The notes: a model not told the origin generated them from the sequence alone. Shown: positions 4,685 through 57,764, counted from the first letter of the stretch. The stretch: 64,000 bases of DNA from Psammoneis japonica (GCA_008632985.1 QPGO01000038.1:459939-523938), one strand, 5' to 3'. Translations and numbers: made by a program.

Positions 4685-5400
4685 CTAGGGTGCATGTTGC
4701 TTCTTCCATGGATGTCGCGAAGTGACTTCAGAAGATTGCAATTCGTGGCACGTGGGCCGGTCCTAATGTCGCTTGCTCCAAGCAGGCATGCAGCGGAGCT
4801 TGTTGCTGCATCGATTCGCGTGGCCGCACTGCTTCGAAAACGAAGGAATCAGAAAGTGCAAAAATGGGGTTTTCGAAGGAACAGGAACTTTCTGTGAGGA
4901 TTCCGATGATGGCTACACTGCTCTACCGCCAACACCCTCTCATGCTTCTGCACCAACACCCTCTCCTACACTTCAGATGAGTGCCCCCTTTAGAATGCTG
5001 TGGCACATTTGTTGGTCTGGGTGGCAAGTGCTCAAATCACGTGTTTTTGCAACGGGGTCTGCTGCACAGATTCCTGCCATGTTGCTTTGAAACAAAGGAG
5101 TCAAAGCACAAAAATGGGTGTTTTCAAAGGAGTTGGAACCTTCTGCAATCATCCTGACACACACATCTGACCAAAACAGTCTCCAGTGATGTCTCTCCGT
5201 CCTCTGCTCCAGTGCTGGAACCAGCTGGTGCGCGCTCATTCCCAAAGCACTCACAACATTTGGGCAGGTCAGAGGAGAAATTCTCCAACTCCATTGGGTG
5301 TGTGATTTGCTTTGGCATTGAGACAAAATGTTTGGATGACAAGCTTTCCCGGATGACTGGTGGGGCTTGCTGCACCAAGAATCATTTTTCTGCCTGGTCC
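4685..5400 (+). pseudogene. Frameshifted Cys-rich repeat (GACC-type) gene relic
   Basis: Repeated peptide units GACC...C...G.(W/F).G...C across frames. DNA similarity between ~4833-4885 and ~5087-5146 (FENEGIRKCKNGVFEGTGTFC-like unit). Confidence 0.4.
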
Positions 5401-7436
5401 TCCTGGTGGTGCAGCGCTCATGTGGTGACAGCCCAAAATGTCTCTTGTGGCATTTCGGCATCAAATGCACTGATGAAAACACTGGCATCCTTTGGCAACC
5501 CCAAATCCAGCCCCTGAAAAAGCTGTTGTTGCAATCTGAGACAGGGGAGTTGCTGGTGCTTGCAAGGTGGGGAAAGCCTTTTGCTGGAAAATTTCCAACT
5601 TTCCACAAGCTCCACTTGCTGAAGACATCATGGGCAAAAAACTCCAGCTCCCACATCACCTCAAGAAGCCATTGGCAAGGGTGCCTGCTCCATTTCTCCA
5701 GTGCAAAACACAACTTGCTGTCATCTTGCAGAAGTCAAAGAAGGCATGGAAACCACCAAGGAGATTGTGTCCAGAGCAATCTCAGCTGGACCACTTGTCC
5801 TGCTGAAGATGTTAAAACACCAGCTCCCACACATCAAGCCATTGTCAAGGGTGTTTGCTTCTTTTTTGATGGAGGGCAAAACAAGTCATTGACAGTTTGC
5901 AAAAGTCAGAGCAGGTGTGGAAGCCACCAAGGTGATTTGCACTCCATGAAGTGGCCTTGGCTGGGCTTCTTGTCCTGCTGCTCCATGTGATGCCATGCCC
6001 TTGTCTTCAATCTTTCTGCCGTGTGCTGCTTTGCCCCACCAGCAGCAAAAGCACTTGAAAAATGTCCAACAAGGGAAAGAAGAAGTGTGCACTTAAAAAG
6101 AATGAGGGCCATGTGCTCAGCAAGAAAAAAGCACAACATGAGAGATTTGTCCAACACTGCATTTAGAGCTCATTGCCTGTCAGGGGTGGCTTCTTCTCGA
6201 GTTTCTTTCAGATTGTCTTTTTCCTCAAACAAAAGGGGGGCAGAGTCAAGGGGTGCACTCTTGTTGCTCTGAGAGGTCAAATACAAAGCAAGAAAGGGGG
6301 GCTGCCACTGGAAAAACAGAGTCTCCTTTTGGTGCTCAATGAAGAGAAGTGCTGGAAGAAGGGTGGGTGCTTTTTGTGTTGACCAAGGTTCCAAGCAAAA
6401 GTGCAGGCATGGGTGCCACCCAGTGAGGTGCGCTGGCTGATCTTGTTGGAAGACACATGGGTGTCTTGCCAGCAAAAGCTCCAAATGTGTGTGTTTTTAG
6501 CACCCAGTCAAGGTGTGTCAATCAGAGGTTTTTTCAGTCCTGACAGCTGAGACTAGACCCAACACAGCATGATGGTCTTTCTAAAAACAGCTGGTTGTTG
6601 CTCATGTGTGCTTGTTGTGCAAGTGACTCATTTTGTGCATGATGTGTCACGACACTTCTTGTTGCTGTGTTGTGGCTGAATGCAGGCTCACAAATTTCTT
6701 GTGCTCTCATTTGTTGAACTCTTCAACATTGAGGGCTGTTCCACCCTTGATTTCAGATTGCTGCTCAGCACCAGAGACTTGCCCTCTGTTCTAAAATTTG
6801 ATCAAACACCACCACATCAGGTGTCTGCCCCACCCATTTGCCAACACCACAAGGATCTTCTTGCAGTGCTGTGAGCAAGCAACATGCATTTCTGATTTTC
6901 TCTGGCAAAGTGAGTTTGAAACACACTTGGCACTCACTCTCATGGAATGCAGTGCTGGTGGCAGCAAATTTGATTGGGGCATCTCATGGCCACAGTTGTG
7001 TGTTGTTCTCAATCCAAACCAGGCCCGTCATGCACAAATGTGCAACAAGGCATCTGCAAAATGCAGAGCATCACAAGAATGTGGTGCCAGTGCTGCTGGG
7101 ATGATGGTGGCTGAGAGGCTCTGACTTTTTTCTAATTCAACAAGTGCCCTCCAGTGCACTTCAGGCAGTGCCTCCCTGAAAGTGGTCTCTGCTTCCAGAC
7201 TTTGCAAGCCAACTGTTGGGTTGGAAAAGGTGGGTCCAAAAAAGATGCACAATGCAGGGTGCAGACAATCTCATTGTGGACAGATGGCAAGCAACCTCAG
7301 AAACACAAGGAGTGCATTTTGGAATTTAGTCAGGGTGTCAGAGCATGCTGCCCAGATGAGAGCAACAAGGATGGCTCTTTGACAAAAACAGCTCTGACAA
7401 CAAAGGATGGGTTCAGAGCAGCAGGAAGCAGCAACA

Positions 7437-7467
<31 letters not shown>

Positions 7468-8465
7468 ACAAAATCACAAGAAGAGTGAGGGTGTGATGTG
7501 CGAGGATGCCGGGGCAAACAACTCCATTGGAAGAGTTGATTGTTCAAAATGATTTTGATGATGTGGGTGACCCCATGCAGTGTTCAAGGGCACAGGCAGT
7601 CCCCATCCATTTGGCAACATCCTGGCTCTTCAGATGGCACTTTTTGGTTTTTTGCGGAGAGGGCTCATGGCGCAAAGAGGCGTGTTGAGGTTGGAGGCTG
7701 AACAATCATGGGAGCTGTGTTTGTCAGTTGCAGCAATTGCTGCCACTTTGACACAGCGGTGGTGTGTGATGGAAGACAATGGAATCTCCCTCCTGACAAA
7801 ATGCATGCAAAAGCAGAAGAGTGTGCTGCATTGTGTGTGCGGCCAAGTGTGCACAGCAAACAACAACAAAGCAACAGCGCGATTTCTTGCAAACAGTTTG
7901 TTGCATCCTCACTTGCAAAAGGAGCTGCACTTGTGTGGAAACAGACTTTGTGTGTTGTGGCATGGCACATGGCGCAAACATGTGATGGTTGAATTTTGGG
8001 CAAAGAGCCCACACCATGCTGAGCCACTGAGCTCTGCTGTGTTTTGTCACACGCCAAGATGGTGCAGCCCAGGAAGAATGCTTTGTGTTGATTGTCTGTG
8101 GCTCAGCTTGTCCATCTGGGTTTCAATTCATCACTCTAAGCTTCTCACTGTGCTGGGTTCTTGGGTGGCAGCAGCAGCATGCACAGATGTCGTGTCTTGC
8201 TGCTGTGCTGTTGGAAAAAAAAAAAAAAACACACACACACACACGAGCTGCTGTGCCAGAGGACACACACTCTGTCATGTGTTTTGGATCTCTGCCAGCA
8301 TCAGCCCTCAACAGCAACTGTGGGGCACACAGCCACTGTTCTTGCCCATGGTGACAGTTGTGTGAGAATGCTGGAGGGTGTGTCAATGAGGATTCAGTTT
8401 TGTGGTTGTTGGGAGCAAATGCCACTCGCTGTTCGCGTTCGCCGCAGTCATGGAACAGGAATCCG
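4995..8465. other. TpA- and CpG-depleted hypermutated domain 1
   Basis: Only about a dozen TA dinucleotides seen in 3.5 kb, nearly all TTAA/TTAG/CTAA/CTAG. CG is also rare and TG/CA very abundant. Normal TA content resumes abruptly at ~8470. Confidence 0.85.
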
Positions 8466-13701: not shown

Positions 13702-14087
13702 AGTTACGAAAGAAAACTTTTAAAAAGCATACCGAGTAATGTATATCCCCTCATCTATCATTTTCTTTCGACAATACGCACATAGGAGCAAAAAGGAAGG
13801 ACCAGATTTTGTTGATCGTTGATCGCGAGCTTTAGACCCGTTCCGTTACCCTTGCGAACCCTTGCGAAGTCTGCGAAATGACATTTTTCAAAAACATCTG
13901 AAGTGACGTCACTTTCTGAATGTTGACGTCTCTGAGACTGTCCCTGATTTCGCATTCGTAACCGCGAGAGCTGCGAGGTGCGAGGTGTTCGGAGGAGGAG
14001 GAGGAGTCTTCTCTCGTGCGGAGCGCTGAAGCACCACACCAGCAGTGTACAGAAAAAGCAAATCGATCATGCTGACACGAACTCGCC

Positions 14088-15490
14088 ATGTCTTCTTCTG
14101 ATCAAGATGTGCCAGATCTCAATGCATTGGTGGCAATGAGACCAAGGAAAAAGAAAAAGAGGATGGCTTTGTTGGCAGAACTCATTGCTGCATTGTGTCA
14201 GCACGCTGACGCCATTGAACGACGAGAATCATCACACGAGCGTTCTCATGCGAGATGCAACCTTCGGGACTTGCTCGATTCACACTGTGCCTCCTTGCTC
14301 ACCGGAGAATTTGCAACTGTTTTCAGAATGCCTCCACATGCCATGGAGTGCCTCCGAAATGTGTTGTGCCCGCATTTGAAGCCGAAGTTGTCGGATGCCA
14401 ACATGGCCGGCCGACAGGATTGCAACCAGAGGCCACTTGCGGTCAATGAAAAGGTGAAACTTGGCTGCATGGGGTCTGGAGGTTGTTCTTTGGGTGCTCT
14501 CATGTTTGCTTTTGGCTTGGGTCACACGTGTGTGGAGGGCACGTTGTTTGATTTTTTCAAAGCCATTGTTGAAGCCGATGTTGGTGCTGTTCATTTTCCC
14601 ACAACAGAGCCAGAGCTGGGATGCATGGCAAATCAATTTTTACAAAACAAGAACAACCTTCCGGAATTGCACATTGGTCATGCAGGAGCAGGAGATGGAC
14701 ATGCTGTGAGAATTCGCATGCGCCAGGCAGCGACGAATGCGAGAATCCAATGGCGTGCATCAATCGGAAGGGTTTTCCGGCCATCAGTGTTCAAGTGATT
14801 GCAGATGCAATCTTAAAGTGTCAAGTGTTGGGCATCCATGCTGCAAGAAATGCTCATGACAGGACAGCTTGGGAAATGTGCGACATGGCCACAAGATGGG
14901 AGAATGAAGTGCGAATCAAGCATCGAGGCACCGAGAGGCACCACCACGTCTTTTTGGATGAGGCTTGTGGCTGTGGTGCAAATTAGGTTGGTCCATGGCC
15001 AGGCACTGGGCTTGCAGAGCATGAGCCATGCAAGGATGCCTTCAACCATCATCTGAACAAAGGCCATCACAATTGCATTGAGCGCATGTGGGGCAATGTC
15101 TGCCAGAAGTTTGGGATTTTTTGGCGTCCTTTGCTTTTTCCATTGCACAGGTGTCCTGTGGTGATTCAATCTATTTTTTGCCTGCACAATTTTCTGAAAG
15201 ACCTTGGTGTTGATGATGATGAATTGTGCGTTCCTTCAGTCAACACTGGACCGGGTCAGCATTGACAGGGTGAGCCATTCCTTTCCGCAGACGAGCCCAT
15301 GGGGCACGACCAGAACCTGCATCCCATGGACCAATGCTGGCTTGAAGAAAGGGCCATCCCACAGGTGCATCATGGGCAGTGTCCAACTCGGGAACAGATT
15401 GCAGAGTCATTGAGAACTGCAAACATTGTTTGCCCAGCTCCCGGCGGCGGCAGAAATGTTTCGTTGATGGCATTGAACCCCAACTAGAGA
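14088..15490 (+). pseudogene. Harbinger DDE transposase (DDE_Tnp_4-like), frameshifted
   Basis: GAGDGHAVRI, NRKGFPAISVQVIAD, AHD, FLDEAC, AFNHHL and CIERMWG match the Harbinger motifs GAIDGTHI, NRKG..S.NVQ..CD, THD, GDxAY, FNY.L and IERAFG. Confidence 0.85.
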
Positions 15491-15759
15491 ACCGATCTGC
15501 TAAAGTCATGGAAATTAAAGTGGTGTCATTAGAAAGCTGTTGTTCTGTAGATGATGTTGTTGCTGTTGACAGTGTCACAATTCCAAGTCATTGCAAAGAT
15601 GCGCCTGCTTGAGCAAGACGCACTGTGATTTTGGCGCGCAAGTGCGGGATTGTTGCAATGTCCAAATGCCGATTCAGATCCACCAGAGAGGGTCACAGAA
15701 GCAAAAGTTGCACCACAAGAAAGCTGTGATTCTGTAAATGATGTTTGGTGCATTGCATT

Positions 15760-17575
15760 CTATTCACTGCTGTCTGAAGATGGACAATCACCATCCGTGG
15801 TGTCATTGTCCAAATTGGCACACGTTGCAAATGCACAAAGTTGCGACCCGCCAGTGCAATCAGGGTGCCCACAAGTCAGGGAAGTGGGGTCATCTTTGTC
15901 AAGGTGAGCTTTGCAACCAACACGGTGCAAGTGATGCCCACAATGTTCAAAGTTGGAGCACATGTTTGAAGACCAGGAACCCAAATCCGAGCAGTTGAAA
16001 TCGTGGTGTTCCACCTCGTCTCTCATGCCAACCGGCTCGTTCGGCTTGTTGCATTCTGTGCAGCCGCAGCACACCAGTTCATTGCATGAATTGCTCTTGC
16101 TGTCGGACTGGCCATCTTCTTCACGCTCTGCAGACTCATTCCCTCCATCGTGGCCATCAGAGTCATTCCCAGCAGAGACTTCCCTGTTCCTTCCTTGGTG
16201 TTGGTGGCTCTTGCGTTGAGAACAAACATTGAGTTGGCACAAATCATTGACATTGCAAACAGCTCAAAGAATGTGCAAGGCACTCACCTCATCATCGCTG
16301 CTGCTGGATGACACAGACAGAAGAAAAGAAGCATCATCGTGCTCAACATTGCCATCCAGCTCAACTTTTCGCACTTTTGCAACCTCTTTCTCAAGATCCA
16401 CGCACTCACTGTGGCTCTTTTGCACTGCTTGATCTTTCTCTCACGCTTTCTCAAGTCACCAACCTTTTCACATGCATCATGGCCCGAATCTCATCGCCTG
16501 GTCACTCCAACTTGTTCTGGGCACGGTCTCGATTCTGCTGCAAGAAAAACATGTTCTCTTTGTTGCTGTTGTCCATCATGTTGCTTTTCAACTCCTTGAC
16601 CACGTTCAAGATTCTTTCAGACACGCAAGATGGAGTTGGCGGCGTCAAGGCTGCGTTGAATGGTGCTGGGATCCGACGAGTCAATGCCACAGCCACCTGG
16701 GAGGAGACACACAAACTTGTTGAGAACAGACAAATCACCATTTTGGTCAATTGCCTTCCACCAACAGAGAATGGATTGGTCCAGTGGGACAGTCAGATCA
16801 AGAGCATTCTCAAAAGCTTCCGCACCCGAGCTGCTCTTCGTGCCGACCTTGTGCACTGCTGTCAACCTGCTGCGAAGCTGTCCAACCCTCAACTTCAAGA
16901 CATCTGGAGCACGGGAAGAAATGGTCTTGTCATTGGGATTGAAGGCCTTGAGAAGTGGGCCACCTGGAAACCGATGGGTCGGTTTGCACTCGTCAAAATT
17001 GTTGTGCAGAAAACAGCAATGAACTCTCGGTGCACAGCCATGAGGGGTGGGTCGCCTTCATCAAGCACAACACGTGGAGCCTTTTGGTGAAGGCACTGGA
17101 GGGGTTTCTGGAAGGTCGGGTCACTCAAAATCTCAATGATGCAAGAATCTTCTGCCTGGCTCCAGTTCTTGGAAGCGCTGAAGGGGCGCTTTTCGATGCA
17201 TGCTTCTTGCTGCCGGAAGATGCAGAACCACGTCATCAGATGCTTCTTCAAGTCACCAGAATTGCCTGTGGTGGAAACGTTTTTCGGTGTGGGATTGTCA
17301 TTGTGAACATGCTTGCACTTGTGGCAAAGAGATCTGAGACTGGCCACTTTCATTGACAAGACACTAGCATCTGCAAGTGTCTTTTCTTCCGCAGACAGTT
17401 CTTCGCCATCACAAACATGCAGGGAGAAGAACAGCTTTTGATCAAAGAGGTGAGGGGTTGGCACAAGCCCCATGTCCTCATCACAAGGTGTGCCATCATT
17501 GTTGCTGTCTTGTGTTGGTGGCACTTGGTTGGTGCCATTTGTGTCATCAGTGCCGTCGCTTGAAGACGACATGGT
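15760..17575 (-). pseudogene. Harbinger ORF2 (Myb/SANT-like DNA-binding protein) relic
   Basis: NWSQAEDSCIIEIL resembles the Myb-like WS.xED.xL motif; convergent with the transposase and inside the TIRs. Confidence 0.5.
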
Positions 17576-17993
17576 GCCATCAATTTTTTGTGTTGATTGT
17601 TGCAGAGAGTGCATCTCGTGATGCACCCGGTTTCAGCTTCAGGAGGTGCACAGTTGGGCTGAACATGCCAGAAACTCACACACAGGTTCTGCACAATTGT
17701 GAACTTGCCAGTCAATTTGAATTGACTGGCAAGTTTGCAACAATTGTGGGCAAGGGAAATGTGAGAAAAGTCATCAAATGTCCCTTGATGTTTTTGTCAA
17801 AATGTCCGGCCTCGTAGTTTGCAGGTTTCACAGGATTTGCAAGGGTGACAGCAGGGCCCTTGGCTGTCGCGAGCGGCGCCGTGAGAACAAAGTGAATCAA
17901 AACCGTTGAGAACACGCAATTTGATTGTAAACATGTTTTTTGTGCTGACAACCCTTTTCAAATTTACGATTCATGAAAGTGAATCGCAAATCA

Positions 17994-19986
17994 GAGCATC
18001 TTCGCCAGTGAGTCGTAAATGCAAACACAAACACAAACACAGGAACACAACCCAAAAGGACAAGCAAGCAGACTGCCCTGGATGAGTTTGCGATTCTGCA
18101 TGCGACCATCATTTTCAGTTGATCACAATCGCACTCACATTCGGCCGATGGTTGGGCAGACGTTGAGGTGACAAGCAACCTCATGCACGTGTGTCAACAA
18201 ACAACTCTGATGGCAGGACGGACTTGATGAACATTGCATGATGCCATGGCGGCTTTGAACGCAATGCACAACACAAACCACAGTCTGTTCAAAGATGTGT
18301 CAACGTTTGTCAACAGAGAACAATTCACACCACATGTCTGTGTGTTGCCATGTTGTGAAAGTCATTCTACATCATGAAAACAAGCAAAGTGTTGTCGCAT
18401 GGTTTGTGCCTTGTTCTCTTCTGACCCCACAAACCCCCCACATGTCCGTTCTCCTCCCATGTCTCGATGTGTCCGTGTGCAAGTTCATAAGACACGACAA
18501 AGTGTCAATTGTTGGGCCTCTGTGAGACGTGCTCCAGTTCCAGGTGACGCACAAAACGACAATCAATTTTGAACACAAATCATGTGTCCTTTAGTGCACG
18601 CAGCATTTTCACATAAAATGCTTGAGCGAATTTGCTTTTATGGGCCTAAAGAGCATGGACATTTAAACAGTTTTTTGTGGGGCATTCAAGTCCTCATGGG
18701 ATGTGTGTCACAAACCTCCTCAGTGGACTCAACGCTGTTTTGCACGTCAGTGCATTTAACACTGAGATTTCTTTGCAGGCAGAAAACCTGCCAAGCAGCA
18801 TGGTGAAAAGACACATTTAGGTGACATCCAAATGACGGCAGCAATTTCGCCGAAAATCATCTGCTGTGTTGTGATTCGTTCAACGCAATGAAAAACACAA
18901 ATGGCACAATGACAATGATTTTGCAACACTCACACGAGTCTTGTCAGTGTTGCAAAACATTCAAATTTGTGCAAATCTGTGCTTTTGGTGGTGAAAATTC
19001 GTTCGTAAGTCAGAGACCGTGCAAAAATTGCGCAAATGTTGTTTTTGTGCACAATTTGGGTCACGTGCGGCTGGAACACGTCGTGAGGTCCTCTCATCAA
19101 GAAAGCATCGATTGTCATTTCATCGTGGTGACACGCACTTTCTGCAGGATTTCTGCACCCTTTTTGCACCAGAAATTTACAATTTTTGTTTAAGATTTTG
19201 GAGGTGGATTGCATCCAAGGCCTGATTTGCGATTCACTTTCGTGAATCGTAAATTCGAAAAGGGTTGCAAGCGCAAAAACATGTTTACGATCTACCAAAA
19301 ATGACGATTTTTTTGTGAATCTCATTTGCATCTTCATCCACCTCCAAAATCGCAAACGAAAACCGCAAATTTCTGGCGCAAAAAGGGTGCAGAAATCCTG
19401 CAGAAAGTGCGCGTCACCATGACGAAACGACAACCGACGCTTTCTTGATGAGAGGACCTCACAGAGGCCCAACAATTGACACTTTGTCACATCTTATGAA
19501 CTTGCATGTGGTCGCATTGAGATGTGGGAGGAGAACGGACATTTGGGGGGGTTGTTGGGTCAGAAGAGAATGAGGCATGAATCGTGTGGTGACATTTCGC
19601 TTGTTTTTTCGCGATGTAGAATGACTTTCACAACACAGTGACACACAGACACATGATGTGAATTATTCTCTATTGATAGACATCGACATGTTATTGAGTA
19701 GACTGTGATTTGTGTCGTGTGTTGCGTTCAAAGCCGCCATGGCGTCATGTGATGTTCAACAAGTCCGTCCTACCATCAGTTAGTTATTGTTATTCGTGTA
19801 TGCAGTTGCTTGTTACCTCAACGTCTGCCCAACCATCGGCCGTATGTGAATACGATTGTGATTGACTGAAAATGATGGTCGCGTGCAGCGAATCGTAAAC
19901 TTATACGGGGCAGTCTGTTCGCTTGTCCTTTTAGGTTATGTTCCTATGTTTATGTTTATGTTTACGACTCACTGGCGAAGATGCTC
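17994..19986. mobile_element. Non-autonomous foldback element with ~650-bp inverted arms (left 17994-19209, interrupted by a MITE; right 19336-19986)
   Basis: Ends GAGCATCTTCGCCAGTGAGTCGTAAA / TTTACGACTCACTGGCGAAGATGCTC, and the arms align over their length. Flanks tca/tta and the GAGCATC terminus suggest a Harbinger/Tourist type. Spacer 19222-19291 is also an inverted copy of 17924-17994. Confidence 0.85.
18526..19082. mobile_element. Nested 557-bp MITE with 4-bp TSD GTGA
   Basis: Imperfect TIRs gacgtgctccag... / ...ctggaacacgtc. GTGA is duplicated at 18522-18525 and 19083-19086. The other foldback arm shows the empty site ctct-gtga-ggtcc. Confidence 0.75.
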
Positions 19987-20149
19987 TTACTGTACAGTGA
20001 TCATTCCCGAAACAGCGCGACGCATGACTCAGAAATTGATTCCGACAGCAACGAGAAACAGCTCATGAGAGTTTGATAGTTCGAACAACAACTATCATCA
20101 TGCCTTGCTCATAATTCCTAACAGCATCTTTCACTCAACGCAATATATA

Positions 20150-20866
20150 ATGAAGCTTGCAATCTTCTCCGCAACTCTTGGCGCAGCATGTGCCTTTGCC
20201 CCATCGGCATCTCACTCCTCCTATTCCACTCTTTCCCTGTCCACCGAAGTAACCAACGATGCTCCCGTTGAGACTGAAGATGAGGAGATCACCACACCAG
20301 CCGTTGCCCCAATCAACGGATGGGTCCCTGACGAGACCAAGCCTCTCTACGGTCTCCCAGGAGCCATTGCACCCCTTGGGTTTTTCGACCCTTTAGGCTT
20401 CAGCAAGGACGTGGAACTAACGGGAGCCAAGAGACTTCGTGAAGCCGAAATCATGCACGGCCGCGTCGCCATGATGGCCACCATTGGATACCTCATTGGT
20501 GAGAGCACGCCCACCATTACGTACGGAATGGACGTCCATCATACGATTGCAAACAACCAAATCCCTGAGGTTCCCGGAACTGTTCTCTTTCCGTTCTTCC
20601 TTGCCATCAACATTGCCGAAGCCATTCGCGCCAACATTGGTTGGGTGGAACCCGGTCTCGGACCGCTCTTTACCCTTCGAGAATCGTACTACCCAGGTGA
20701 TATCTATTTTGATCCTCTTGGCCTCAAGCCGACTGACCCCAAGGAATTTGAAAACATGCAAAACAAGGAGCTCAGCAACGGCCGTCTTGCCATGTTTGCT
20801 GCCGCCGGCATGTGCGTCCAAGAGCTTGTCAATGGCAAGGGTATCCTCGAGAACCTTGGATTCTAA
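20150..20866 (+). CDS. Lhcx: Lhcx-type fucoxanthin chlorophyll a/c light-harvesting (photoprotection) protein
   Basis: ACAFAP bipartite plastid leader; FFDPLG, REAEIMHGRVAM, IGWVEP, YYPGDIYFDPLGLKP, KELSNGRLAM and QELVNGKGILENL. Confidence 0.9.
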   Translation: MKLAIFSATLGAACAFAPSASHSSYSTLSLSTEVTNDAPVETEDEEITTPAVAPINGWVPDETKPLYGLPGAIAPLGFFDPLGFSKDVELTGAKRLREAEIMHGRVAMMATIGYLIGESTPTITYGMDVHHTIANNQIPEVPGTVLFPFFLAINIAEAIRANIGWVEPGLGPLFTLRESYYPGDIYFDPLGLKPTDPKEFENMQNKELSNGRLAMFAAAGMCVQELVNGKGILENLGF

Positions 20867-25344: not shown

Positions 25345-26568
25345 TTAGGAAGCACCGGAGCCGACAATCTGGCTGGCAAACTTGCGAGCCCCATCACGCG
25401 AAAGTTCTGCGTTCGATCGATCAACAACATCACAACGAGTCTCAATCTCTTCTGGTGTGTACCCCTGAATAAAAGGTAGAAGGGACAAGGAGTAGTAATG
25501 TTAGAAATACCGCAAAATCCATCTTATGCATATATAGGCAGGCAGCATCAAATTATCCACTTGCCGGAATGCACTTGTTTCGCTCTTTCAGTCGTTCAAT
25601 GCATGCATCAACATCGGCGTCAATGTAGATTGTCCAGTCAAAGAAACTCTTGATGTTTTCCCATCCGTCATTGTCATGCAGCAGATAAATTCCCTCACAA
25701 ATGACAATGTTGTGACGAGAACGATCAAATGTGTGTTGATTTGGCACGGGGTCCCCTTTGGCGTGATCAAAGCCCGGTATCGTGACGGTCGTTTCATTCC
25801 CCGACCGAATGCGCTCCAATGCGACGGACAGCCCTTGGGGATCAAAGGTATCTGGGGCTCCTCGTCTATAAATCATATCCGGCGCATTTGACATCTGGCC
25901 AAGTGTTTCTAATGAAAGGTGGAATCCATCCATGGGCATGACAATGGCTTCTTTTTCCGAGTCAGTAGTGTTGAGCAGAGCAGCCAAAATCTCTGCTGAT
26001 GTGCTTTTCCCACTTCCAGGGATTCCCACTAATCCAATCATCAGGGGGCGATTGGGATTACTAAGACGAACCATGTGCGATAAGAGCTCAGCTGCAGTCG
26101 GTTCCCATGTAACGAGATTGCTGGCAATCTTGGCTGTGGCAGGGTTCATGTAAAGCGATGCCGAAACGGCGGCTTCTTCGAGCTCTGGCTGGTTGACAGA
26201 GGCACCTTCAGAAGCAATTTCTGGAGGAGACAGAGCCGTTTCGTTTTCTAACAAGACTCGTTCAATATCTTCAGTCAACGTTTCCTTGTCGAGATCGGCA
26301 GGAGGTTCTGGCAGATCATTTTCAATGGCAATAATGACCTCTTCATCTTCTGCTACAACTTCTTCTACTGCTGGCTCGAAAATTTCCGCCTCCTGCAGAG
26401 CTTCTACGGCCTCTTCCACGTCGGTCACCTGCACTGTCGTTTCTGGCGGCGCAGCAAATAGTCGAGGGCTTCTGGTCCCAAAAGCGCGTCGCCCCCCACA
26501 AACAGGGAAACCAAGGAAAAAAAGAGCGCAGCACGACTGCAGCAGCTGGTGAGGTTCGAATAGCCCAT
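25345..26568 (-). CDS. P-loop kinase (uridine/pantothenate kinase-like, YggC-type), probably plastid-targeted; GC-AG intron 25564-25465; apparent frameshift near 26485
   Basis: Walker A GIPGSGKST plus PMDGFH, RRGAPDTFD and EGIYLL. The splice joins NKCIP to GYTPEEIE, with a stop at 25345. Confidence 0.85.
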
Positions 26569-26866
26569 CCTTCTCTCAATCTGAACGAAAAGTGGCCACT
26601 TCACCGCCACGCACTGACGTTGTGGATGGCGGATGGAGAAGAGGAATGCGAGTCGTGCTTCCACGTCAGCAAAACCTACTTCTCATCATGGTCGTCGCTC
26701 CGTCGCCCGCGCCCTCATCCACGCCCGCTTGCCGACTTTACGCAGGCTCTTGCACAAATTCTATGCAGGGACAAATAAACCCGTTGGGCTCAGTTTTGTT
26801 TGATTGCCGACAAACGCCAACAAGGCGTTGACGATGGCGACGGTGCAACATCTCAACGGCTTACAT

Positions 26867-27397: not shown

Positions 27398-27669
27398 ACA
27401 CGTGGCCTGTTCCAGCTCCAGGTGATCCGCTTTTCATCACGCGAGAGGCCGATTTTCTGCGGAGTTTGGCGCAATTGACTCCTTCAATTTTGACAGTTTT
27501 GAAAATCGAAAGGTGAGTGTGCACCCAAAAATGCATGTAAAGTGCACACTCACCCTTCGATTTGGCAAAAAACGGATTTTGAAAAAGTTAATTGCGCTAA
27601 ATGCACAAATTGCCAAATGATGGGAATCGAACCCGCGCGGATCACCTGGAGCTGGAACAGGCCACGTGT
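27398..27669. mobile_element. MITE-like element with perfect 33-bp inverted repeats
   Basis: acacgtggcctgttccagctccaggtgatccgc (27398-27430) and its exact reverse complement (27637-27669). Confidence 0.8.
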
Positions 27670-40365: not shown

Positions 40366-43300
40366 TTGTCATCATTGTTCTTCTTGCCCCAAGTTCCTTG
40401 TGATGTCACCTCACAGTCACGGATGTCCACATCACCAATGACATGTCCTTCTCACATCATTGCCATTGCGCTCATGGTGGCCCGAGCAGCGAGCAGCCTC
40501 CATCCTTTTTGTCAACACACAGCACTCATCATTGGCTGTTGTCCAAAAGACATGTCCTTTCAATCTGTGGACCCTGTGTCACTCTCCCGTGGTTTGTGTG
40601 GCAGTTGTCCAACCAATTTGCTTGAATGCCCTCATTGCCGTCAAATGGCTCTTCAAATCTCATTTGACAAGTGCCCATGCAAGTGGGCGGTGACTCTCCA
40701 GTGCCCTCCCTGCAGCGCCTGCTGGGTTGTTTGCAAAGATTGTCCCTGATGCAAAGACCACATTCTCAGTTTTGCGGAAGCCAGCTGCCATGACACACAA
40801 ATCCACCAGCGCAAAAAACGCGCTGCTCCCTCTCCCTTGCCCCCGACCAATGATGCAGATTCTCATTCTATGGCCGTCCCTGACAATGATGTCATCACTT
40901 TTGCAGCAGATGATTCTGTCATGTCTGCAGACCTTTTCGGTGCAGACCTGCCTTTGACCAACATGCTGGAAGAAGCCGACCATTTTGCCGCCCCTCCAGC
41001 CATTTCCACAGATTTGGCCAATCCATCCTACGTTGAAAACACTGATTGGTTGCTCTCTGTTCAACGCACTTGTTCCGATCCTTTTTTTGCTGCCAACAAT
41101 TGGGCAGCAAAAAACGTCACCTGCTTGCCAAGAATTTGTTCAACAATGCACAATTTGCAGAAAAAGTGTCAGACGAGGACGCTGAGGTTCACTTGTTGCT
41201 GGGCAAGTTAATGTTGTCCCTGTCTGAGCCACAGCAGCACATGTTGTGGGACTTGTTCAGATGGTTGGAACCCACAATGCTGGTGGGGGAAAGAAACAAG
41301 AGTCTGGATCACTTTCGGTTTGTTCTGCCCACAACACCCACACATGTTTGCAACATGCATTTAGAAGGATCTCATTTGCTTGAGAAGACGGTGCCCTTGG
41401 TGCCAATGCAAACACTCGGCTCTGGCAAAAACACTCACTCCCATTGCAGTGTGATTGACTCAATGTGCAACTTTTTAGCGTTCGGAACTGGCCTGGAAAA
41501 TCTGTGTGTAGCCACTGACAAAAATGGTTTGTTTCAAGAAAATCAACCTGTTTTCCATGCAAGACAGTGTCGTCGGGTTAAGGAAATTTATGACACTTCC
41601 ATTTCAATTTGGAACAATGACCAACACACCGATTGTCCATTGCTTGTCACAGCCTTTGAAACATTTTCTGATGATTTTAACCCTGCCGTGAGCCTGATTG
41701 CTTCCAATGTCAATGGCACTTGGGCTCACCACATTGGGTTTCTTCGCCAACCACGTCGTGGACCTTTGTTCCCTGATGACTCAAGCATGACCGCAACCGA
41801 CATTGGTGAGTTCAACAACCGCTTTCTCATTGCGCTTGGGCCCAAAGGTGCAAATCATGACGTGGTTGTGTCTGAGGTTGAAAGGGAATGTCACCTTCTC
41901 CGATCTGGGCAGGTGCCACCCATGTTTGTTGGCAGCACTGGCAAATTAATGAAGCCCATCGCAGATGTTTGGTTGCGATCTGGAGACCAACCTGAAAAAC
42001 ACACCATTGCTGGAATGAAACTTGGCATAAAAACCAATCATGCATTGTTCGGCCATGTTTTGAACATCAAGAAAGTTGGTTGTCATCTTGCGTCTTGCAT
42101 CCACTGTCACAAACGCATTGAAGAAACCCTTGTCAATGGTTTCCAAACGATTGCAGACTTGACATGTCCATTTGGATTGTGCACCAACTGGTCTGTTGAT
42201 GCCTCCAATCCGTTGCTGCATGCCCCCCCTCCTGCCAACTTTCCACTCAGCAAACTCGGTGGTAAATCGGTTCTCCCTCCTTTCAAATGGACCTGCAAAT
42301 TTCTCCAAACTGCCGCAATTAAAACGCACACAAATGTCTGTCAGAACCAGTGGACCATGGCAGAAGGCGAAGCTTGTCTTGGTGATCATTGCAGTGTGAA
42401 CACACAAGTTGTTTCTGGTGTTTTGGAAAACACCAACAACTGCAATCTGTTGAAAGTTTTGCAAGATGAACCCGATCAAAATCCAGAATTGTTAGAAGTG
42501 CTTTTGCTTGATCGTGAACGTCATCCTGAGAAACGCCGCATGTGTCAAATGCCACCCATTTGGTTTAGCGGGACACCTCCTGACCAGTGGCAGGAGGCAC
42601 CAATGCATGGTCTCAGCAACACCGCAAAGGCCGTGATGCATTTGATGGAGAAAGGTTTGGCTTGCTGCTCACACGGGCGATGGGAACGGATTGTAGATTC
42701 CTTGCTGATGAGCCAGATGCGACACTGTTGTGAAACACTGAGACTTCCTTGGTTGAATGTGCATCCATTCACAAAGGACAGTTTTGCTGGATTTAAATGC
42801 AAAAATTGGATTGCGTTTGGACTTTTGTTTAAATTCTTTGCCAACTTAACACTTGAAACACCGGATGGCCCACCTGTGGTGTTTCCGCCTGCCAACAAAC
42901 AAGCAAGTTGGACCATGCCATTTGACAAGGCATGGCTGAAAATGCGTGGATTGCCAATGGATGGCAATGCCAAAGAACTCCGTGAACGTGTTGTGGATTA
43001 CATGGCCATGACAAACCCTCCAGGCATGTTGCCTTCCACTGCATTGCAGGTGTCTGACATTGTTAAAATGCTCAACTCTGCCTCAAACATGTGTGCACAC
43101 GCACTTTCTGGATTCAGTTCAGATGATTTGGAGTTGTGTCTCAGGCATTGCATCATGCGATTTCTCAATGACATGGATGCTTTAGATCTGCCAATGTGAA
43201 AAAACCGTGGCAAAGACGGCAAAGATCTGGCCCCAATCTGGCATGAAAGACACACTGTTCTTAGCATGTTGTCTTTTCCTGACGACATGCATGACAAAGG

Positions 43301-44786
43301 ACCGGTGCGAGCACGTTGGGAAGGGGAAGATGAAAAGGTGCTGAAGCAGACCAAAAGAGAGTTCCATTCATGCAGCAAAAATTTTGCTGCAAACATGCAC
43401 AGCAGGTTCAATGTCACTGCTGCAATGGACCGTGTGTCTTCAACTGGTGAGAAGAAGAAATCTGCCACATGCATCAAATGCCACCCATTTGGTTTAGCGG
43501 GACACCTCCTGACCAGTGGCAGGAGACACCAATGCATGGTCTTGGCAACACCGCAAAGGCCATGATGCATTTGATGGAGAAAGGTTTGGCTTGCTGCTCA
43601 CGCGGGCGATGGGAACGGACTGTAGATTCCTCGCTGATGAGCCAGACACGACACTGTTGTGAAACACTGAGACTTCCTTGGTTGAATGTGCGTCCATTCA
43701 CAAAGGACAGTTTTGCTGGATTTAAATGCAAAAATTGGATTGCGTTTGGACGTTTGTTTAAATTCTTTGCCAACTCAGTGCTTGAAACACCGGATGGCCC
43801 ACCTGTGGTGTTTCTGCCTGTTGACAAACAAGCAAAGTTGGACCATGCCATTCAACAAGGCATGGCTGAAAATGCGTGGATTGCCAATGGACGGCAATGC
43901 TGAAGAACTCCGTGAACGTGTTGCGGGTTACATGGCTGTGACAAACCCTCCAGGCATGTTGCCTTCTACTGCATTGCAGGTGTCGGACATTGTTAAAATG
44001 CTCAACTCTGCCTCAAACATGCATGTGCGCGCACTTTCTGGATTCAGTTCAGATGATTTGGAGTTGCATCTCAGGTTTTGCATCTTGCGATTTCTCAATG
44101 ACATGGACGCTTTAGATCTGCCAATGCAAAAAAACCGTGGCAAAGACGGCAAAGATCTGGCCCCAATCCAGCATGAAAGACACACTGTTCTTAGCATGTT
44201 GTCTTTTCCTGATGACATGCATGACAAAGGACTGGTGCAAGTGTGTTGGGAAGGGGAAGACAAAAAGGTGCTGAAGCAGACCAAAAGAGAGTTCTGTTCA
44301 TGCAGCAAAAATTTTGCTGCGAACATGCACAGCGGGTTCAATGTCACTGCTGCAATGGACCGTGTGTCTTCAACTGGTGAGAAGAAGAAATCTGTGGACT
44401 CTGATGCATTGTTGTTAGAGCATCGGATTAAAAAGGTGATGCCAGATCTGCATGTGTGCAAGACATGGCAGCATCTTCTTTCTCTTGTGGATGGAAAAGA
44501 TGACAAAGAACCAACAGTTCTTGCACAGTTAGAAGATGGCAAGACCGGAGCTGCAGTGGAACCCAACTGTCTGCTTCATGTCCAGCTGGAATGCAAGGAA
44601 ACATTTGGTTGCAAGGATCATTTGCTGCCACCATCACCAGTGAAGAGTTGTCCAACAGACGTTTCTTGCAACCGAATCAGATTAAAGCCATTTTGGTTGG
44701 CTTCTGCAGGAAAACACCGGATGGATCAAATTGTTGGGGATTCGTTGACTCAGAGCACAGAGACTTGTGCCAAGATTTGGTTCTAA
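40366..44786 (+). pseudogene. CMC/EnSpm- or Plavaka-like DDE transposase relic containing a tandem duplication
   Basis: FSDDFNP, IALGPKGANHDVV, GDQPE, CxxC, APMH and GPVRARWEG motifs in the expected order; family assignment from motif recall only. Confidence 0.6.
42535..44394. repeat. Tandem duplication, ~929-bp unit (42535-43463 and 43464-44394)
   Basis: The two copies align end to end and differ mainly by transitions and one indel. Confidence 0.95.
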
Positions 44787-52837: not shown

Positions 52838-53146
52838 AAGGTGAGTCACGCGTGTGATGGCCAGCCGTGCCGGTCTCAGTTGCACGGATCTCCCACAGAC
52901 CATCACAGGTCTTGCACTGGGAGTCTTGTCATCTGATTTGTGCTGCTGTGGGATCAGCATTGCTGTGGACAGCCTGCAGACACAGGAAAGTGGCATCAAC
53001 GGCGGCTGCGGCAGGGACACCTGCTGCAGCCAGCAGATGAGAAAGTGAGAGACAGATCTCAGAGAGATCTGCTCGTCTGTCTGGGTGGTCCGGTCGTCAT
53101 CCATGCACAGTCTGTCAATCACACAACAGACAGACTGACACACGCT
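52838..53146. repeat. Dispersed repeat X; inverted copies at ~58907-59187 and ~55386-55452, direct partial copy at ~63602-63725
   Basis: Shared sequence, e.g. gaccatcacaggtcttgcactgggagtc and ggcatcaacggcggctgcggcagggacacctgctgc. Confidence 0.85.
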
Positions 53147-54725
53147 TGCTTTCCTTGAAACAACTTGTTTGTTTTCCTTGAAACAACTTGTTTGTTTTCC
53201 TTAAAACAACTGCTCATTTTCCTTGAAACAACTTGTGTGTTTTCCTTGAAACAGCTGGTCATTTTCCTTGAAACAATGTGTTTGTTTTCCTTGAAACTGC
53301 TGGTCATTTTCCTTGAAACAGCACGCTTGTTTTCCTTGAAACAACATGTTTGTTTTTCCAGAAATGACATGTTTGTTTTTCTTGAAATGACATGTTTGTT
53401 TTCCTTGAAACCACAGGTTTGTTTTCTTTGAAACAACATTTTTGTTTTCTTTGAAACAACATGTTTGTTCTCCTTGAAATGAAATTTTTGTTTTCCTTGA
53501 AACAACATGTTTGTCTTCCTTGAAATGACTTGTTTGTTTTCCTTGAAATGACGTGTTTGTTTTTCTTGAAACAACATGTTTGTTTTCCAGGAAATGACAT
53601 TTTTGTTTTTCTTGAAAGGACGTGTTTTTTTTCCTTGAAAGGACATGTTTGTTTTCCTTGAAAGGACATGTTTGTTTTCCTTGAAACAACACATTTGTTT
53701 TCCTTGAAACAACATGTTTGTTTTCCTTGAAACAACATGTTCATTTTCCTTGAAATGACATTTTTGTTTTCCTTGAAATGACATTTTTGTTTTCCTTGAA
53801 ACAACACGTTTGTTTTTCTTGAAATGATGTGTTTGTTTTCCTTGAAACAACATGTTTGTGTTTTTTCAAATGACTTGTTTGTTTTCCTTGAAACAACATG
53901 TTTGTTTTTCTTGAAATGACACGTTTGTTTTTCTTGAAAGGACATGTTTGTTTTTCTTGAAAGGACATTTTTGTTTTCCTTGAAAAACACGTTTGTTTTT
54001 CTTGAAATGACATGTTTGTTTTCCTTGAAACAACACGTTTGTTTTCCTTGAAACAACAAGTTTGTTTTCCTTGAAACAACATGTTTGTTTTCCTTGAAAT
54101 GACATTTTTGTTTTCCTTGAAACAACACGTTTTTTTTTTTTGAAATGACGTGTTTGTTTTCCTTGAAACAACATGTTTGTTTTTCTTCAAATGACTTTTT
54201 TGTTTTCCTTGAAACAACATGTTTGTTTTTCTTGAAATGACATGTTTGTTTTCCTTGAAACAACATTTTTGTTTTCCTTGAAACAACATGTTTGTTTTCC
54301 AGGAAATGACATTTTTGTTTTCCTTGAAACAACGTGTTTGTTTTCCTTGAAATGACACGTTTGTTTTCCTTGAAACAACACGTTTGTTTTCCTTGAAACA
54401 ACATGTTTGTTTTCCTTGAAACAACGTGTTTGTTTTCCTTGAAACAACACGTTTGTTTTCCTTGAAACAACACGTTTGTTTTCCTTGAAATGACATTTTT
54501 GTTTTCCTCGAAACAACACATTTTTTTTTCTTGAATGACTTGTCAGTTTTTCTTGAAACCACAGGTTTGTTTTCTTTGAAACAACATTTTTGTTTTCCTT
54601 GAAACAACACGTTTGTTTTTCTTGAAATGACTTGCCAGTTTTTCTTGAAACCACAGGTTTGTTTTCTTTGAAACAACATTTTTGTTTTCCTTGAAACAAC
54701 ACGTTTGTTCTCCTTGAAATGACAA
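53146..54725. repeat. 23-bp satellite array (consensus TTCCTTGAAACAACATGTTTGTT)
   Basis: Head-to-tail degenerate 23-mers; translations show a 23-aa period. Confidence 0.95.
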
Positions 54726-54809
54726 AAAGCTCGCCGCTCAAATGCAAATTTGTTGCTCTCTTTCCGTGAAAGTGAAAGAATGTGACACGAGCAAAATTTT
54801 TTTGCCTTG

Positions 54810-55200
54810 TCCATTGCCTGTCAAAGACAGAAAGGGTGTTGCCGTGACAGAGATTGGAGCCTGATCAACTCTGCACATGTGTCGATGCGCCACCTTTTTT
54901 TTTTAACCAGGGTGAACTCCACAGTGGAGCGCACGCAACTTGACACTGTGCACTGCATTTTCTTGATGCAGTGCTTGTGCTCGTGCAGCGCTCCAAGTGC
55001 AAGACATGGAGTTGGACAAAGATGACCCTTGGGCTGAAACTTTCTGCCGCACAACTGCGCACACCACCACCAAGGCAGCTCTGATGCAGTTGGTCTTTGG
55101 ACGTGACATGAGATCTTCCGCTGCCTTTTGCAAAGAGTGGAGGCATGTCTCGGACAGAAATCAGAAAATGCTCCACTCAACTGACAAGCGCGAGAGTTGA
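54810..55200 (+). pseudogene. Ty3/gypsy integrase C-terminal fragment; inverted copy at ~63721-64000
   Basis: NSTVERTQ, DDPWAE, HTTTKAALMQLVFGRDM and W..V..RNQ resemble the gypsy IN pattern NAIVER..DPW..HTT.KATP.QL.FGRDM. Confidence 0.65.
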
Positions 55201-55452
55201 GCACAAAAAAGACAAATGGCGGCACCAACAATTGTTGTGCAGGGCCAGCTGCAGTTGTTCAAGTCAATGAAAATGTCATCATTTGTGCTCGAGAAGGTGT
55301 GCTGGTTTTTTGGACACAACAAAAAATGTCCCTTTCCAGCAGTGGGACCCTTCTGTCACTCACACGACCTTGTCACAGGGGTGAGTGCAGCAGGCATCCC
55401 TGCCGCAGCCGCTGCTGATGCTGCTTTCCTGCATTTGTGGGCTGTCTGCAGC

Positions 55453-57420
55453 GAACATGTTTGCACAAGGTGACAATGAGGGCAACCAGTGCTTGCTGCT
55501 GGACGCAATTGTTGACCACAAGACAGACGGACATGCAGTCTGGAAGGAGGGTGCCTTCACCCAAGATGGCAGAGGATGCAAATTCATGCACAAGACAACC
55601 AAAGGCTGGCACCTCTGTGTGCAATGGAAGGACAGCACCGCATCTTGGGAAAGACTGTCTGACTTGAAGGAATCTAACCCTGTGGAAGCAGCTGAGCACG
55701 CTGGGGCCAGATCCATCAAGGACAAGCCAGCTTTTGCCTGGTGGGTTCCCTTTGCCTTCAAGAGGCACAAACAGACAACAGCTGCTGTGAACAAGCAACA
55801 TCACAAGAGCACTCACAAGTGCGGGACACACATTCCCAAGACCTGTGAAGAAGCTGTCAAGACAGACAAGTCCAGCGGCAATTGCATGTGGCAGGATGCC
55901 ACAGACAAGGAAATGGATGTCATCAAGAAAGCTTTCAAGGTCATTGATGATGAAGAGGATCTTGTGGGATGCCAGCATGTCAGCTGCCATCTGGTCTTTG
56001 ACACTGAACTTCAAGGCTTCAAGCAAAAGGCTTGTCATGTGGCAGGGGGACACATGACTGAACCTCCAGCAATTTTGACACATGCAAGTGTCGTCTCACG
56101 TGAGAGTGTGTGGATGGCCCTCACTCTGGCGGCTCTGAATGATTTGGGGGTTGAGGCTGCAGACATTGAGAGTGCATGCATCACTGCACCTGACAGCAAA
56201 AAGATCACTGAGACTCCAGGACCTGAGTTTAGATCTGATGCAGGCAATGTGCTGTTGTGACGCGTGCATTGTGCGGTCTGAAGAGTGCAGGTGCATCCTT
56301 CAGGAACCACCCGGCATCATGTGTGCGTCACTTGGGATGGCAACCATGTCTGGCTGACCCTGATGCATGGATGAAGGAGGAAGTTAGACCCGATGATGGG
56401 TTTGGACATTGTGCTTGTGCACCGTTGCATGCAGACGACGTGCTCATGGCTCGCCATGATGCAATGCTGGCACTCGAGGAACTGGGCCGATGCTTCAGGA
56501 TGAAGCCAGGATCTGTTGGTGATCCTGAGATGTGTCTTGGGGCAAAGACCCGTGAAACCAAATTGCCAAATGGTGTCCATGCTTGGGGCATGAGTTCCAG
56601 CAAATGCATCCAGCAGGCCATTGAGAATGTCTGGGTGCATCCAGACAAGAACAGCCCTGGATGGACCTTGCAACGTTGGGCAATGGCTCCATTTCCACGT
56701 GACTGCCCAGCTGAACCAGACACTGTGCCAGAGCTCAATGCAGATGAAGCTCAGTTTCACCAGTCACAGGCAGGTGTCCTGCGCTGGACAGCAGAACTTG
56801 GGCAAGTGGACCTCATTGCCGAGGTGTCCAAACTCGCCTCATTTCTTGCCATGCTGAGAGAAGGTCATCTCAACACAGTCCTTGATGTTTGTGGATGCTT
56901 GAAGAACAAGCACAATGCCAGGTTGGTGTTTGATCCAATGCACCCGGACATTGACGTGTCTGACAATTCCACCCAATGTGCCAGAAGCTCTGGGCAAGGA
57001 TGTCGACCCATGCTTGTTTGCAGACTCTGACCATGCAAATGACAAGTTGACAAGACGCTCTTGCGCTGGTTGTTTTGTCCACTTGAACATGGCATTGGTC
57101 TCCTGGTTCTCCAAGTGCCAGAGTGCCACAGAGACCTCAGTCTTTGGAGCTGAGTTTGTGGCTGTGAAACAGGGCATGGAAGCCTTGCGAGGCCTCAGGC
57201 ACAAACTCAGGATGATGGGAGTGCCGCTCAGCAGGCCACCATGCATTTGTGGGGACAACCTGTCAGTCCTCCACAACACCCAAAGTCCAGAGTCAACTTT
57301 GAAGAAAAAGTCCAGCTCTGCACGCTGCCGTGCTGTAAGAGAATCAGCAGCTGTGGGTGAGTCACTCACTGGACACATTAGATCGGAGTGCAATCCAGAA
57401 GATCTTGCAACTGAGATCAT
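55453..57420 (+). mobile_element. Ty1/copia (CoDi-type) pol relic: post-integrase domain, RT and RNase H
   Basis: TTKGWHLCVQWKD..SWERL.DLKES.P, PAFAWWVP, WQDA..KEM, SVVSRESV, ALCGLKSAG, LHADDVL, DSDHA.D..TRRS, ETSVFGAEF and GDN.SV. Confidence 0.95.
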
Positions 57421-57764
57421 GTGCGGTGGTGTTGATGACCAAGGATTGGCCATGTGCCGGCACCCTTGTCCCACAGGGTTTCTAGAAGGTCGCTGGGGTT
57501 TTCTTGCCACACATTTGTGGCTGAATGCTGTTGAAGTGTAAAGTTGGTCAAGCCAATTCAGTGCCTGCTTCAATGACTTGAGGGGACTGAAGAATTTGCC
57601 ATGTGGTGTCATGATGGATGGTTGAATGCACTGCATGTTTTGGCAAGTTGGAACAAGCAAACTGCGTCCAAGGCAAGGCTCACATTTCTGGAAACAGTGG
57701 CACGATGTCACATGACTTTCCCATGGCCTTGCTCTCTGGCATGCGACTACAAGGTGATTCATTC

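Follow-up and report, generated by a model that had tools for sequence, protein, structure and literature searches.

A well-controlled border of TA-erasing mutation within a transposon upstream of a diatom light-harvesting gene

We found a well-controlled border of a mutational process that erases TA dinucleotides from transposon DNA in the diatom Psammoneis japonica, which is a variant of a process already described and, as far as searched, is new in print for this lineage. The border falls inside a MITE upstream of an Lhcx-like light-harvesting gene and separates a gene-side tip that keeps most of its TA sites from an inner part and an inverted partner arm that have lost nearly all of theirs, giving one locus and one edge with a known ancestral state. 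Taken as a whole, the explanation that we favor, at a rough probability of 0.65, is a region-limited TA mutator with a stop near genes, which acted on nested MITEs and spared the promoter-side tip.

The window and the elements at the locus

Along the 64,000-nt window (the whole stretch of P. japonica DNA that was analyzed), gene blocks alternate with blocks nearly devoid of TA. In the TA-poor blocks (39,255 bases), the observed-to-expected ratio (O/E) is 0.08 for TA, 1.70 for TG/CA and 0.49 for CG, versus 0.60, 1.13 and 0.99, respectively, in the remainder (16,872 bases), with block borders taken from the composition profile and satellites excluded. Every mutated stretch of the window that could be classed is a transposon or a satellite; the genes outside the TA-poor blocks are intact, and a dead Harbinger-type transposon lies within one of them. 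The locus studied here forms the right margin of the block at 14.0-19.7 kb.

Elsewhere in the window, there are AT-rich 23-bp satellite arrays in both orientations that are nearly without TA (53146-61577), and a 930-bp tandem duplication (42535-44394), the copies of which differ at 60 positions, 50 of them in TA/TG/CA/CG slots, indicating that mutation continued after the duplication. Between a lipase gene and an HSP20 gene, one isolated block (5000-8400) has almost no TA or CG (CG O/E 0.0-0.35), opens with a decayed tandem duplicate of 4791-4960 and gave no Pfam match in its two longest ATG-initiated ORFs. A 270-bp MITE (27398-27669) displays perfect 33-bp terminal repeats resembling those of the 557-bp insert described below, and its flanks, CA and TG, are possibly a TA target site mutated both ways. 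A phosphoribulokinase/uridine kinase-like gene (25500-26570, minus strand) has its probable start, read by eye, at ~26568, out of frame with the remainder, and this break is perhaps a homopolymer error near 26495.

The light-harvesting gene (20150..20866, plus strand) is intact and unmutated and encodes an LI818/Lhcx-like protein of 238 aa (PF00504, E 2e-40), which is 78-83% identical to ten relatives, the named ones being from diatoms and their kin, and keeps the conserved tyrosines. A cluster 76% identical to it includes one member named as of the LI818 clade; together with the PF00504 match, this makes the label Lhcx, under which the gene was originally described, a reasonable one, while solved-structure matches do not separate LI818 from other antenna proteins. 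In two sequencing runs (X1 and X2), the region corresponding to 20077-20300 also occurs in a second, diverged version of the gene's 5′ end, with 27 differences, 13 gaps and other upstream sequence, which would represent a paralogue or a distant allele.

To the left of the locus lies the dead Harbinger-type DNA transposon (13835..17859, ends approximate, plus strand; TA O/E 0.05), recognized with the help of a loose terminal repeat match. Its DDE_Tnp_4 transposase (~14088-15500, plus strand) is interrupted by a frameshift and stops; Pfam finds it weakly (E 0.008, below the curated cut-off) in the read-through translation and misses it in the stop-free pieces, and it shares 62-64% identity with two intact proteins of PF13359. 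For this element, a clean TTA/TTG target-site pair was considered and fails in register; its gene-side end keeps one TA at a site that reads CA at the inner end, a weak sign of protection near the gene.

The locus itself is composed of several MITE segments, of which the two long inverted arms had been interpreted by the earlier note as the arms of a foldback element. The left arm and a centre belong to a first copy (copy 1; 17994..19332, plus strand) that has lost its last ~50 bp and had TA erased throughout. Copy 1 is interrupted by a younger 557-bp MITE of another, very abundant family (18526..19082, unstranded), with ends read by eye, a 4-bp flanking duplication and a TA O/E of 0.17; its empty site is seen in the right arm, contigs skip it, and 25 contigs have loose ends at 19082. 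The right arm belongs to a second copy (copy 2, minus strand), which is made up of a mutated inner part (19335..19660) and a gene-side tip that retains TA (19661..19986). The tip ends in a 33-bp terminal inverted repeat (19954-19986, minus strand), next to which the sequence at the element end is an unmutated TTA of the Tourist/Harbinger target-site type (19987..19989, plus strand). A short host upstream region with a normal TA O/E of 0.65 (19990..20149, plus strand) leads from the element to the gene; copy 2 ends 163 bp from the Lhcx-like ATG, and one contig bridges 19962-20200 without differences. Beyond the opposite side of copy 1, the segment 17923..17993 (minus strand) is an inverted match of 19222-19292 (90% over 72 bp), and from its order and orientation we infer that it is the distal remnant of copy 2; the TCA in which it ends is the probable target site of copy 1.

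Contig joints argue against the foldback interpretation. In contigs of depth 531, the sequence runs from 19326 through 25 other letters into the repeat found at 19954-19986, and a lower-depth form departs from 19332 with CA for TA twice; this second end of the family thus comes in two forms, one with TA and one with CA at two positions, and depth is higher for the former. Pieced together from these joints, the family is one of ~830-bp MITEs, in which the terminal repeat measures 33 bp and the two ends are unlike. Its second end is short and unlike the arm, and an inverted piece of the centre lies to the left of the left arm, so the two long arms are probably not the termini of one element and the foldback reading is not supported. 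The flanks of the arm pair, TCA on the left and TTA on the right, fit a single mutated pair and equally two separate TTA targets. We take the locus to be probably two ~830-bp MITE copies, one nested in the other. As for the order of events, we consider it quite probable that copy 2 was split by copy 1, followed by a ~70-bp deletion at the junction: in the family, the piece seen at 17923-17993 (= 19222-19292) lies only ~10 bp from the start of the arm, and a contig spans the junction without differences. Alternatively, three copies and a larger deletion may have been involved. If the nested reading is right, the protected tip is part of the oldest layer, and it is the younger layers that have lost most of their TA (O/E 0.08 and 0.17).

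The family resembles Tourist-like (PIF/Harbinger) MITEs, for which TWA is described as the target-site duplication (PMC2997013), in its short terminal inverted repeats at both ends (33 bp), a TTA at the intact end, the lack of coding capacity and a gene nearby. Neither arm proper contains an ORF of at least 120 aa, and one 135-aa ORF (18930-19337) spans the insert and the centre. It departs from Tourist-like elements in that no intact target-site pair is left here: the TTA at the gene-side end and the TCA at the end of copy 1 each stand without a partner end. A transposase with the same terminal repeat was not found in the window, the neighboring Harbinger having other ends. Folding predicts a strong hairpin for the centre, which follows from the inverted copy and offers no account of the outer asymmetry of the arms. 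The exact 22-base terminal pattern had a sole metagenome match (L001), which shows no likeness beyond the pattern and is ascribed to chance; this match falls in the end of a prophage-like stretch (L001 1-2389) with, as judged by eye, phage-like lysis-type genes and a tRNA-like sequence.

Ancestral state, asymmetry of the arms and shape of the edge

Aligning 17900-18560 to the reverse-complemented segment 19440-20080 recovered all six pairs of right- and left-arm sequence that were originally quoted as evidence for asymmetry. The 655 aligned columns (excluding the insertion in the left arm) include 103 mismatches, and TA/TG/CA/CG slots account for 70 of these. Within the outermost ~330 bp, the right arm has TA where the left arm has lost it at 18 sites (CA at 11 and TG at 7 in the left arm), all of them 28-321 bp from the right end (19986), and there is no reverse case (sign test p 8e-6 for a zone picked post hoc). 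Over the whole arm, the ratio is 18:2 (p 4e-4), the two reverse cases (left TA, right TG) being in the innermost arm, more than 600 bp from the end, where homology resumes beyond the insertion (19087-19209/19335-19460). The deeper part is mutated in both arms as had been claimed, with nine TG/CA mismatches beyond 330 bp and TA common to both at two sites; four such TG/CA pairs also occur in the outer 330 bp. The tip has a TA O/E of 0.88, compared with 0.09 for the inner part of the right arm and 0.08 for the left arm. CG is also better retained in the right arm (24/29 versus 14/28 in the left, p 0.01). A strand skew is seen in the mutated right arm, which on the plus strand at 19523-19719 has 10 TG versus 3 CA, the left arm being even (18 versus 15); this skew may reflect processive bursts.

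To polarize these differences, we used public contigs aligned to 17700-20300, which come from three runs of one sample, possibly the source of the window itself, and the depth of which is a hint of abundance, nothing more. They contain a sister form of the arm, at a depth of ~490-530 in run X1 versus 25-50 for contigs matching the locus itself, and represented in X2 by one 497-bp contig with 41 differences. The sister comparison rests on 31 of these 41 differences, which are listed, with the unlisted sites counted as equal to the right arm; 15 of the 31 restore a TA lost by the right arm. The sister carries TA at eight inner sites that read TG in one arm and CA in the other. In an independent protein-level record, 14 of the 15 aligned tyrosines of an intact relative (P0156) are replaced in the dead Harbinger transposase by His (nine) or Cys (five), and none is Tyr. 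The sister TA and the Tyr to His/Cys changes together show TA to be the ancestral state of the arms, so that the less-mutated state is indeed visible in this DNA, as the earlier note had proposed; the converse, that the TA-rich state is derived, was checked and fails against the sister copy.

A three-way comparison with the sister yields 37 inferred ancestral TA sites. The right arm retains 20/24 of these in the tip versus 2/13 inside (Fisher p 9e-5), the latter where the sister is visible, and the left arm retains 3/37, including 1/24 at the sites homologous to the tip (p 2e-8 against the tip); even if the 10 unseen sister differences all fell on retained sites, p would be 0.006 against the inside and 0.001 against the left arm. 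From the end inward, right-arm retention is 9/9 in the first 100 bp, then 4/5, 3/3 and 4/7 (260-330 bp), and 2/13 deeper. Sequence context does not account for the sparing of the tip, as a context model fitted on the mutated blocks predicts that only 2.1 of the 22 TA sites in it would remain. Nor is an effect of the end of homology the explanation, as the left arm shows mutation starting 28 bp in from its end.

A change-point test that corrects for the choice of zone places the best change point at 322-329 bp from the element end (permutation p 1e-4). A step (negative log-likelihood 14.7) and logistic ramps with scales of 40-80 bp (14.8 and 15.8) fit comparably; a long gradient was rejected, with scales of 150 and 300 bp fitting worse (17.8 and 20.6). 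Thus, the claim that protection grades with distance from the gene stands insofar as position sets the stop, but its form is a step or a ramp of at most 80 bp rather than a gradient. The edge (~19660-19720, within a transition zone of ~19655-19720) lies 430-490 bp upstream of the Lhcx-like ATG. Comparable edges are found 370-420 bp upstream of the start codon of the HSP20 gene and about 330-410 bp upstream of that of the kinase gene (start inferred by eye), and two more lie 80-260 and 120-480 bp downstream of stop codons; none of the window's five edges reaches a gene. Near 13850 and 26900, the loss of TA starts ~560 and ~800 bp nearer to the gene than the loss of CG, whereas the TA and CG fronts coincide on both sides of the 5.0-8.4 kb block. 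As the TA edge differs from the CG edge at two of the five borders, CG methylation alone does not mark the target.

Chemistry and relation to known mutators

Among 49 lost TA sites, 46 are transitions (28 to TG and 18 to CA) and three are transversions, with no double hit from TA to CG (0/49). Survival per strand depends on the 3′ base (TAT 0.065, TAC 0.18, TAG 0.60 and TAA 0.78): a two-strand product model far outperforms a uniform one (negative log-likelihood 26 versus 170), and the 3′-base bias stands against a non-ORF baseline (p ~2e-18) and within each large block. The pattern fits a mutating agent that reads the sequence one strand at a time; of the 29 sites that are informative on the product strand, the context rule predicts no more than 20 correctly (p 0.03). 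Among 26 A/G transitions between repeat pairs in the window that lie outside the TA and CG slots, 25 are followed 3′ by a pyrimidine; 16 of the 26 are unpolarized, and the polarized ones by themselves give 9 of 10 (p 0.045). The agent may thus also act weakly on any A-pyrimidine. As A-to-G and T-to-C changes look alike in duplex sequence, the chemistry is a matter of inference. Adenine deamination in DNA is the simplest option and, in our estimate, has slightly better than even odds; thymine modification in a purine-T-A context, which would leave an identical sequence record, is a considerably less probable source, and an error-prone polymerase a less probable one still, being expected to leave more transversions than the few seen here.

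In its sequence-level features, the process at this locus matches the TpA hypermutation of integrated giant-virus and virophage DNA reported from Bigelowiella natans (Mettrop et al., bioRxiv 10.64898/2026.01.13.699255). According to that preprint, the main target is a single-copy, silent viral insert, the mutation is ongoing with a measured rate raised about 1000-fold, and an ADAT2-like deaminase is proposed, not shown, as the enzyme. Shared with it are the conversion of TA to TG/CA on both strands by nearly pure transitions (46/49 here), regional TA-poor and TG/CA-rich clusters, and the presence of transposon domains among the targets. The differences are that we deal with a diatom, a stramenopile, and not a rhizarian; that the loss is near complete (O/E 0.08 versus 0.45 in the Bigelowiella viral region); that the targets are transposons and a satellite rather than mainly viral DNA; and that the record is fossil sequence only, whereas a rate was measured there. 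Further, the border mapped to ~100 bp and the preference for a 3′ pyrimidine are described here, whereas the main text of the preprint is silent on borders and context. Given its single-copy target, independence from homology is not a new idea in print.

Likewise, the RIP (repeat-induced point mutation) of Neurospora and other ascomycetes is a dinucleotide-specific transition process that kills transposons (10.1101/344036). It is opposite in direction, changing C to T at CpA and making TA from CA, where here TA is lost and TG/CA gained, and it is triggered by homology; the similar mutation of both close copies that is typical of RIP is absent here (20/24 versus 1/24). RIP is in addition premeiotic and dependent on RID or DIM-2. 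On these grounds, the distinction from RIP drawn by the earlier note stands for direction and asymmetry, but not for position as such: under RIP, paired copies also differ according to position (10.1101/344036), and RIP leaks into flanks (PMC7296669) and is proposed to be escaped by elements near genes (PMC9970103). The paired-copy differences described for RIP are modest shifts over ~150 bp by a linker (10.1101/344036), whereas here one copy is erased and its partner intact.

The decay of CG methylated by DNMT5 is a third process for comparison. Diatom transposons carry CG methylation with H3K9/H3K27 marks (PMC9998398), and, as at our locus, transposons are targeted and genes spared; the same blocks that lose TA also lose CG (O/E 0.49 against 0.99), with TG/CA as the products. 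This decay differs in acting on C, in being slower and less complete here, and in its edge, which is 560-800 bp deeper at two of the five borders. A search, mainly of openly accessible literature, for adenine hypermutation or loss of TA in the repeats of diatoms or stramenopiles yielded the Bigelowiella preprint and work on fungal RIP only, and no paper on such erasure in diatoms.

What sets the border

In the explanation that we favor, the mutator would rewrite TA to TG or CA over transposon-filled blocks and halt a few hundred bases from genes. The ~830-bp copy 2 would have landed 163 bp upstream of the Lhcx-like gene; copy 1 would then have entered it in the opposite orientation, with a small deletion taking out the junction, and the third MITE would in turn have entered copy 1. 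DNA more than ~430-490 bp from the start codon would have been mutated, later insertions included, and the tip of the oldest copy, being within the promoter zone, would have escaped. We posit that the block is a silent chromatin domain and that the open or transcribed state of the promoter acts as the barrier, an assignment helped by the finding that transposons of diatoms bear both CG methylation and repressive histone marks (PMC9998398).

Despite an inverted partner at a distance of 1.3-2 kb and close sisters in other places, the tip is spared. Being repeated yet intact, it shows that homology is not sufficient for mutation and that position decides where mutation stops; this bears out one half of the earlier claim that the mutator depends on position and not homology, the other half, that homology is unnecessary, going further than these data. 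Accordingly, the alternative that best survives, though we regard it as improbable, is a mutator triggered by homology or small RNAs that spreads from the trigger and is resisted by the promoter zone, with homology necessary though not sufficient. All data from the locus fit it: the classifiable mutated stretches are without exception transposons or satellites, all of the mutated DNA examined may have further copies elsewhere, both MITE families are abundant in contigs, and RIP offers precedents in a heterochromatin-linked pathway that mutates single-copy linkers, with paired copies differing by position (10.1101/344036), and in the leakage into flanks (PMC7296669). It is disfavored by the sparing of the tip despite its partner and sisters, by the high-depth sister form, which retains TA over ~500 bp (and may merely be young), and by the single-copy main target reported for Bigelowiella (10.64898/2026.01.13.699255).

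A distinctly less likely alternative is that selection sets the border, either because chromosomes with mutation reaching the promoter were purged or because the tip was co-opted as a promoter with its TA sites conserved. The element is indeed only 163 bp from the ATG, and the edges stop short of genes in five of five cases. The conservation of 20 TA sites is, however, hard to reconcile with the other changes in the tip, namely five private ordinary substitutions and a 2-bp insertion (against up to seven in the left arm over the same stretch), the loss of CG by transition at two sites and two newly made TA sites. The site-by-site form of selection is thus disfavored, and a haplotype-level form may apply.

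These same changes bear on two further readings, both of which we hold to be very unlikely: that a young, unmutated copy recently overwrote the tip by gene conversion, or that the right arm is simply younger. The TA-rich, high-depth sister form is a possible donor, and the edge is short. Yet both arms share alleles against the sister at 19704 and 19809, within the tip, and at 19537, the tip has its private substitutions and insertion, and it is itself partly mutated, having lost TA at 268 and 297 bp. Its divergence at ordinary sites matches that of the other arm, and, if the copies are nested, the right arm belongs to the earlier insertion. The check for a recent conversion patch, proposed originally as a way to overturn the asymmetry, therefore gave no sign of one; the reading of the tip as freshly converted is largely refuted, and even without the nested reading the tip and the inner right arm are one insertion with age controlled. 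The reverse polarity, in which a RIP-like change of CA/TG to TA struck the tip, draws on the direction being unreadable from two arms alone and can be dismissed given the sister TA at the eight inner TG/CA sites, the transposase Tyr to His/Cys changes and the TA-poverty of the blocks (O/E 0.08 versus 0.60).

With the region-limited mutator as the preferred reading, the locus serves as an age-controlled internal experiment, in which one insertion of known ancestral state straddles the border, with repeat identity and age fixed, and it narrows the question of targeting to a 100-bp interval. As far as searched, the TA-erasing process is in print only in the 2026 Bigelowiella preprint, with the enzyme and the targeting rule absent; the preference for TA followed by T or C provides a motif for assaying candidate deaminases. 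For P. japonica, it follows that transposons can survive intact within a few hundred bases of promoters and that the divergence of arms or LTRs is unfit for dating elements in this genome. More tentatively, and at less than even odds, we propose a diatom DNA adenine editor that would act on T-A-pyrimidine, and weakly on any A-pyrimidine, on single strands in turn, be recruited independently of homology by silent chromatin that extends past CG methylation, and meet a promoter barrier 350-500 bp upstream of genes. If this is true, the TA sites retained in transposons would record past chromatin as a fossil map that can be read from sequence alone, and, together with Bigelowiella, the editor would point to an old, SAR-wide genome defense.
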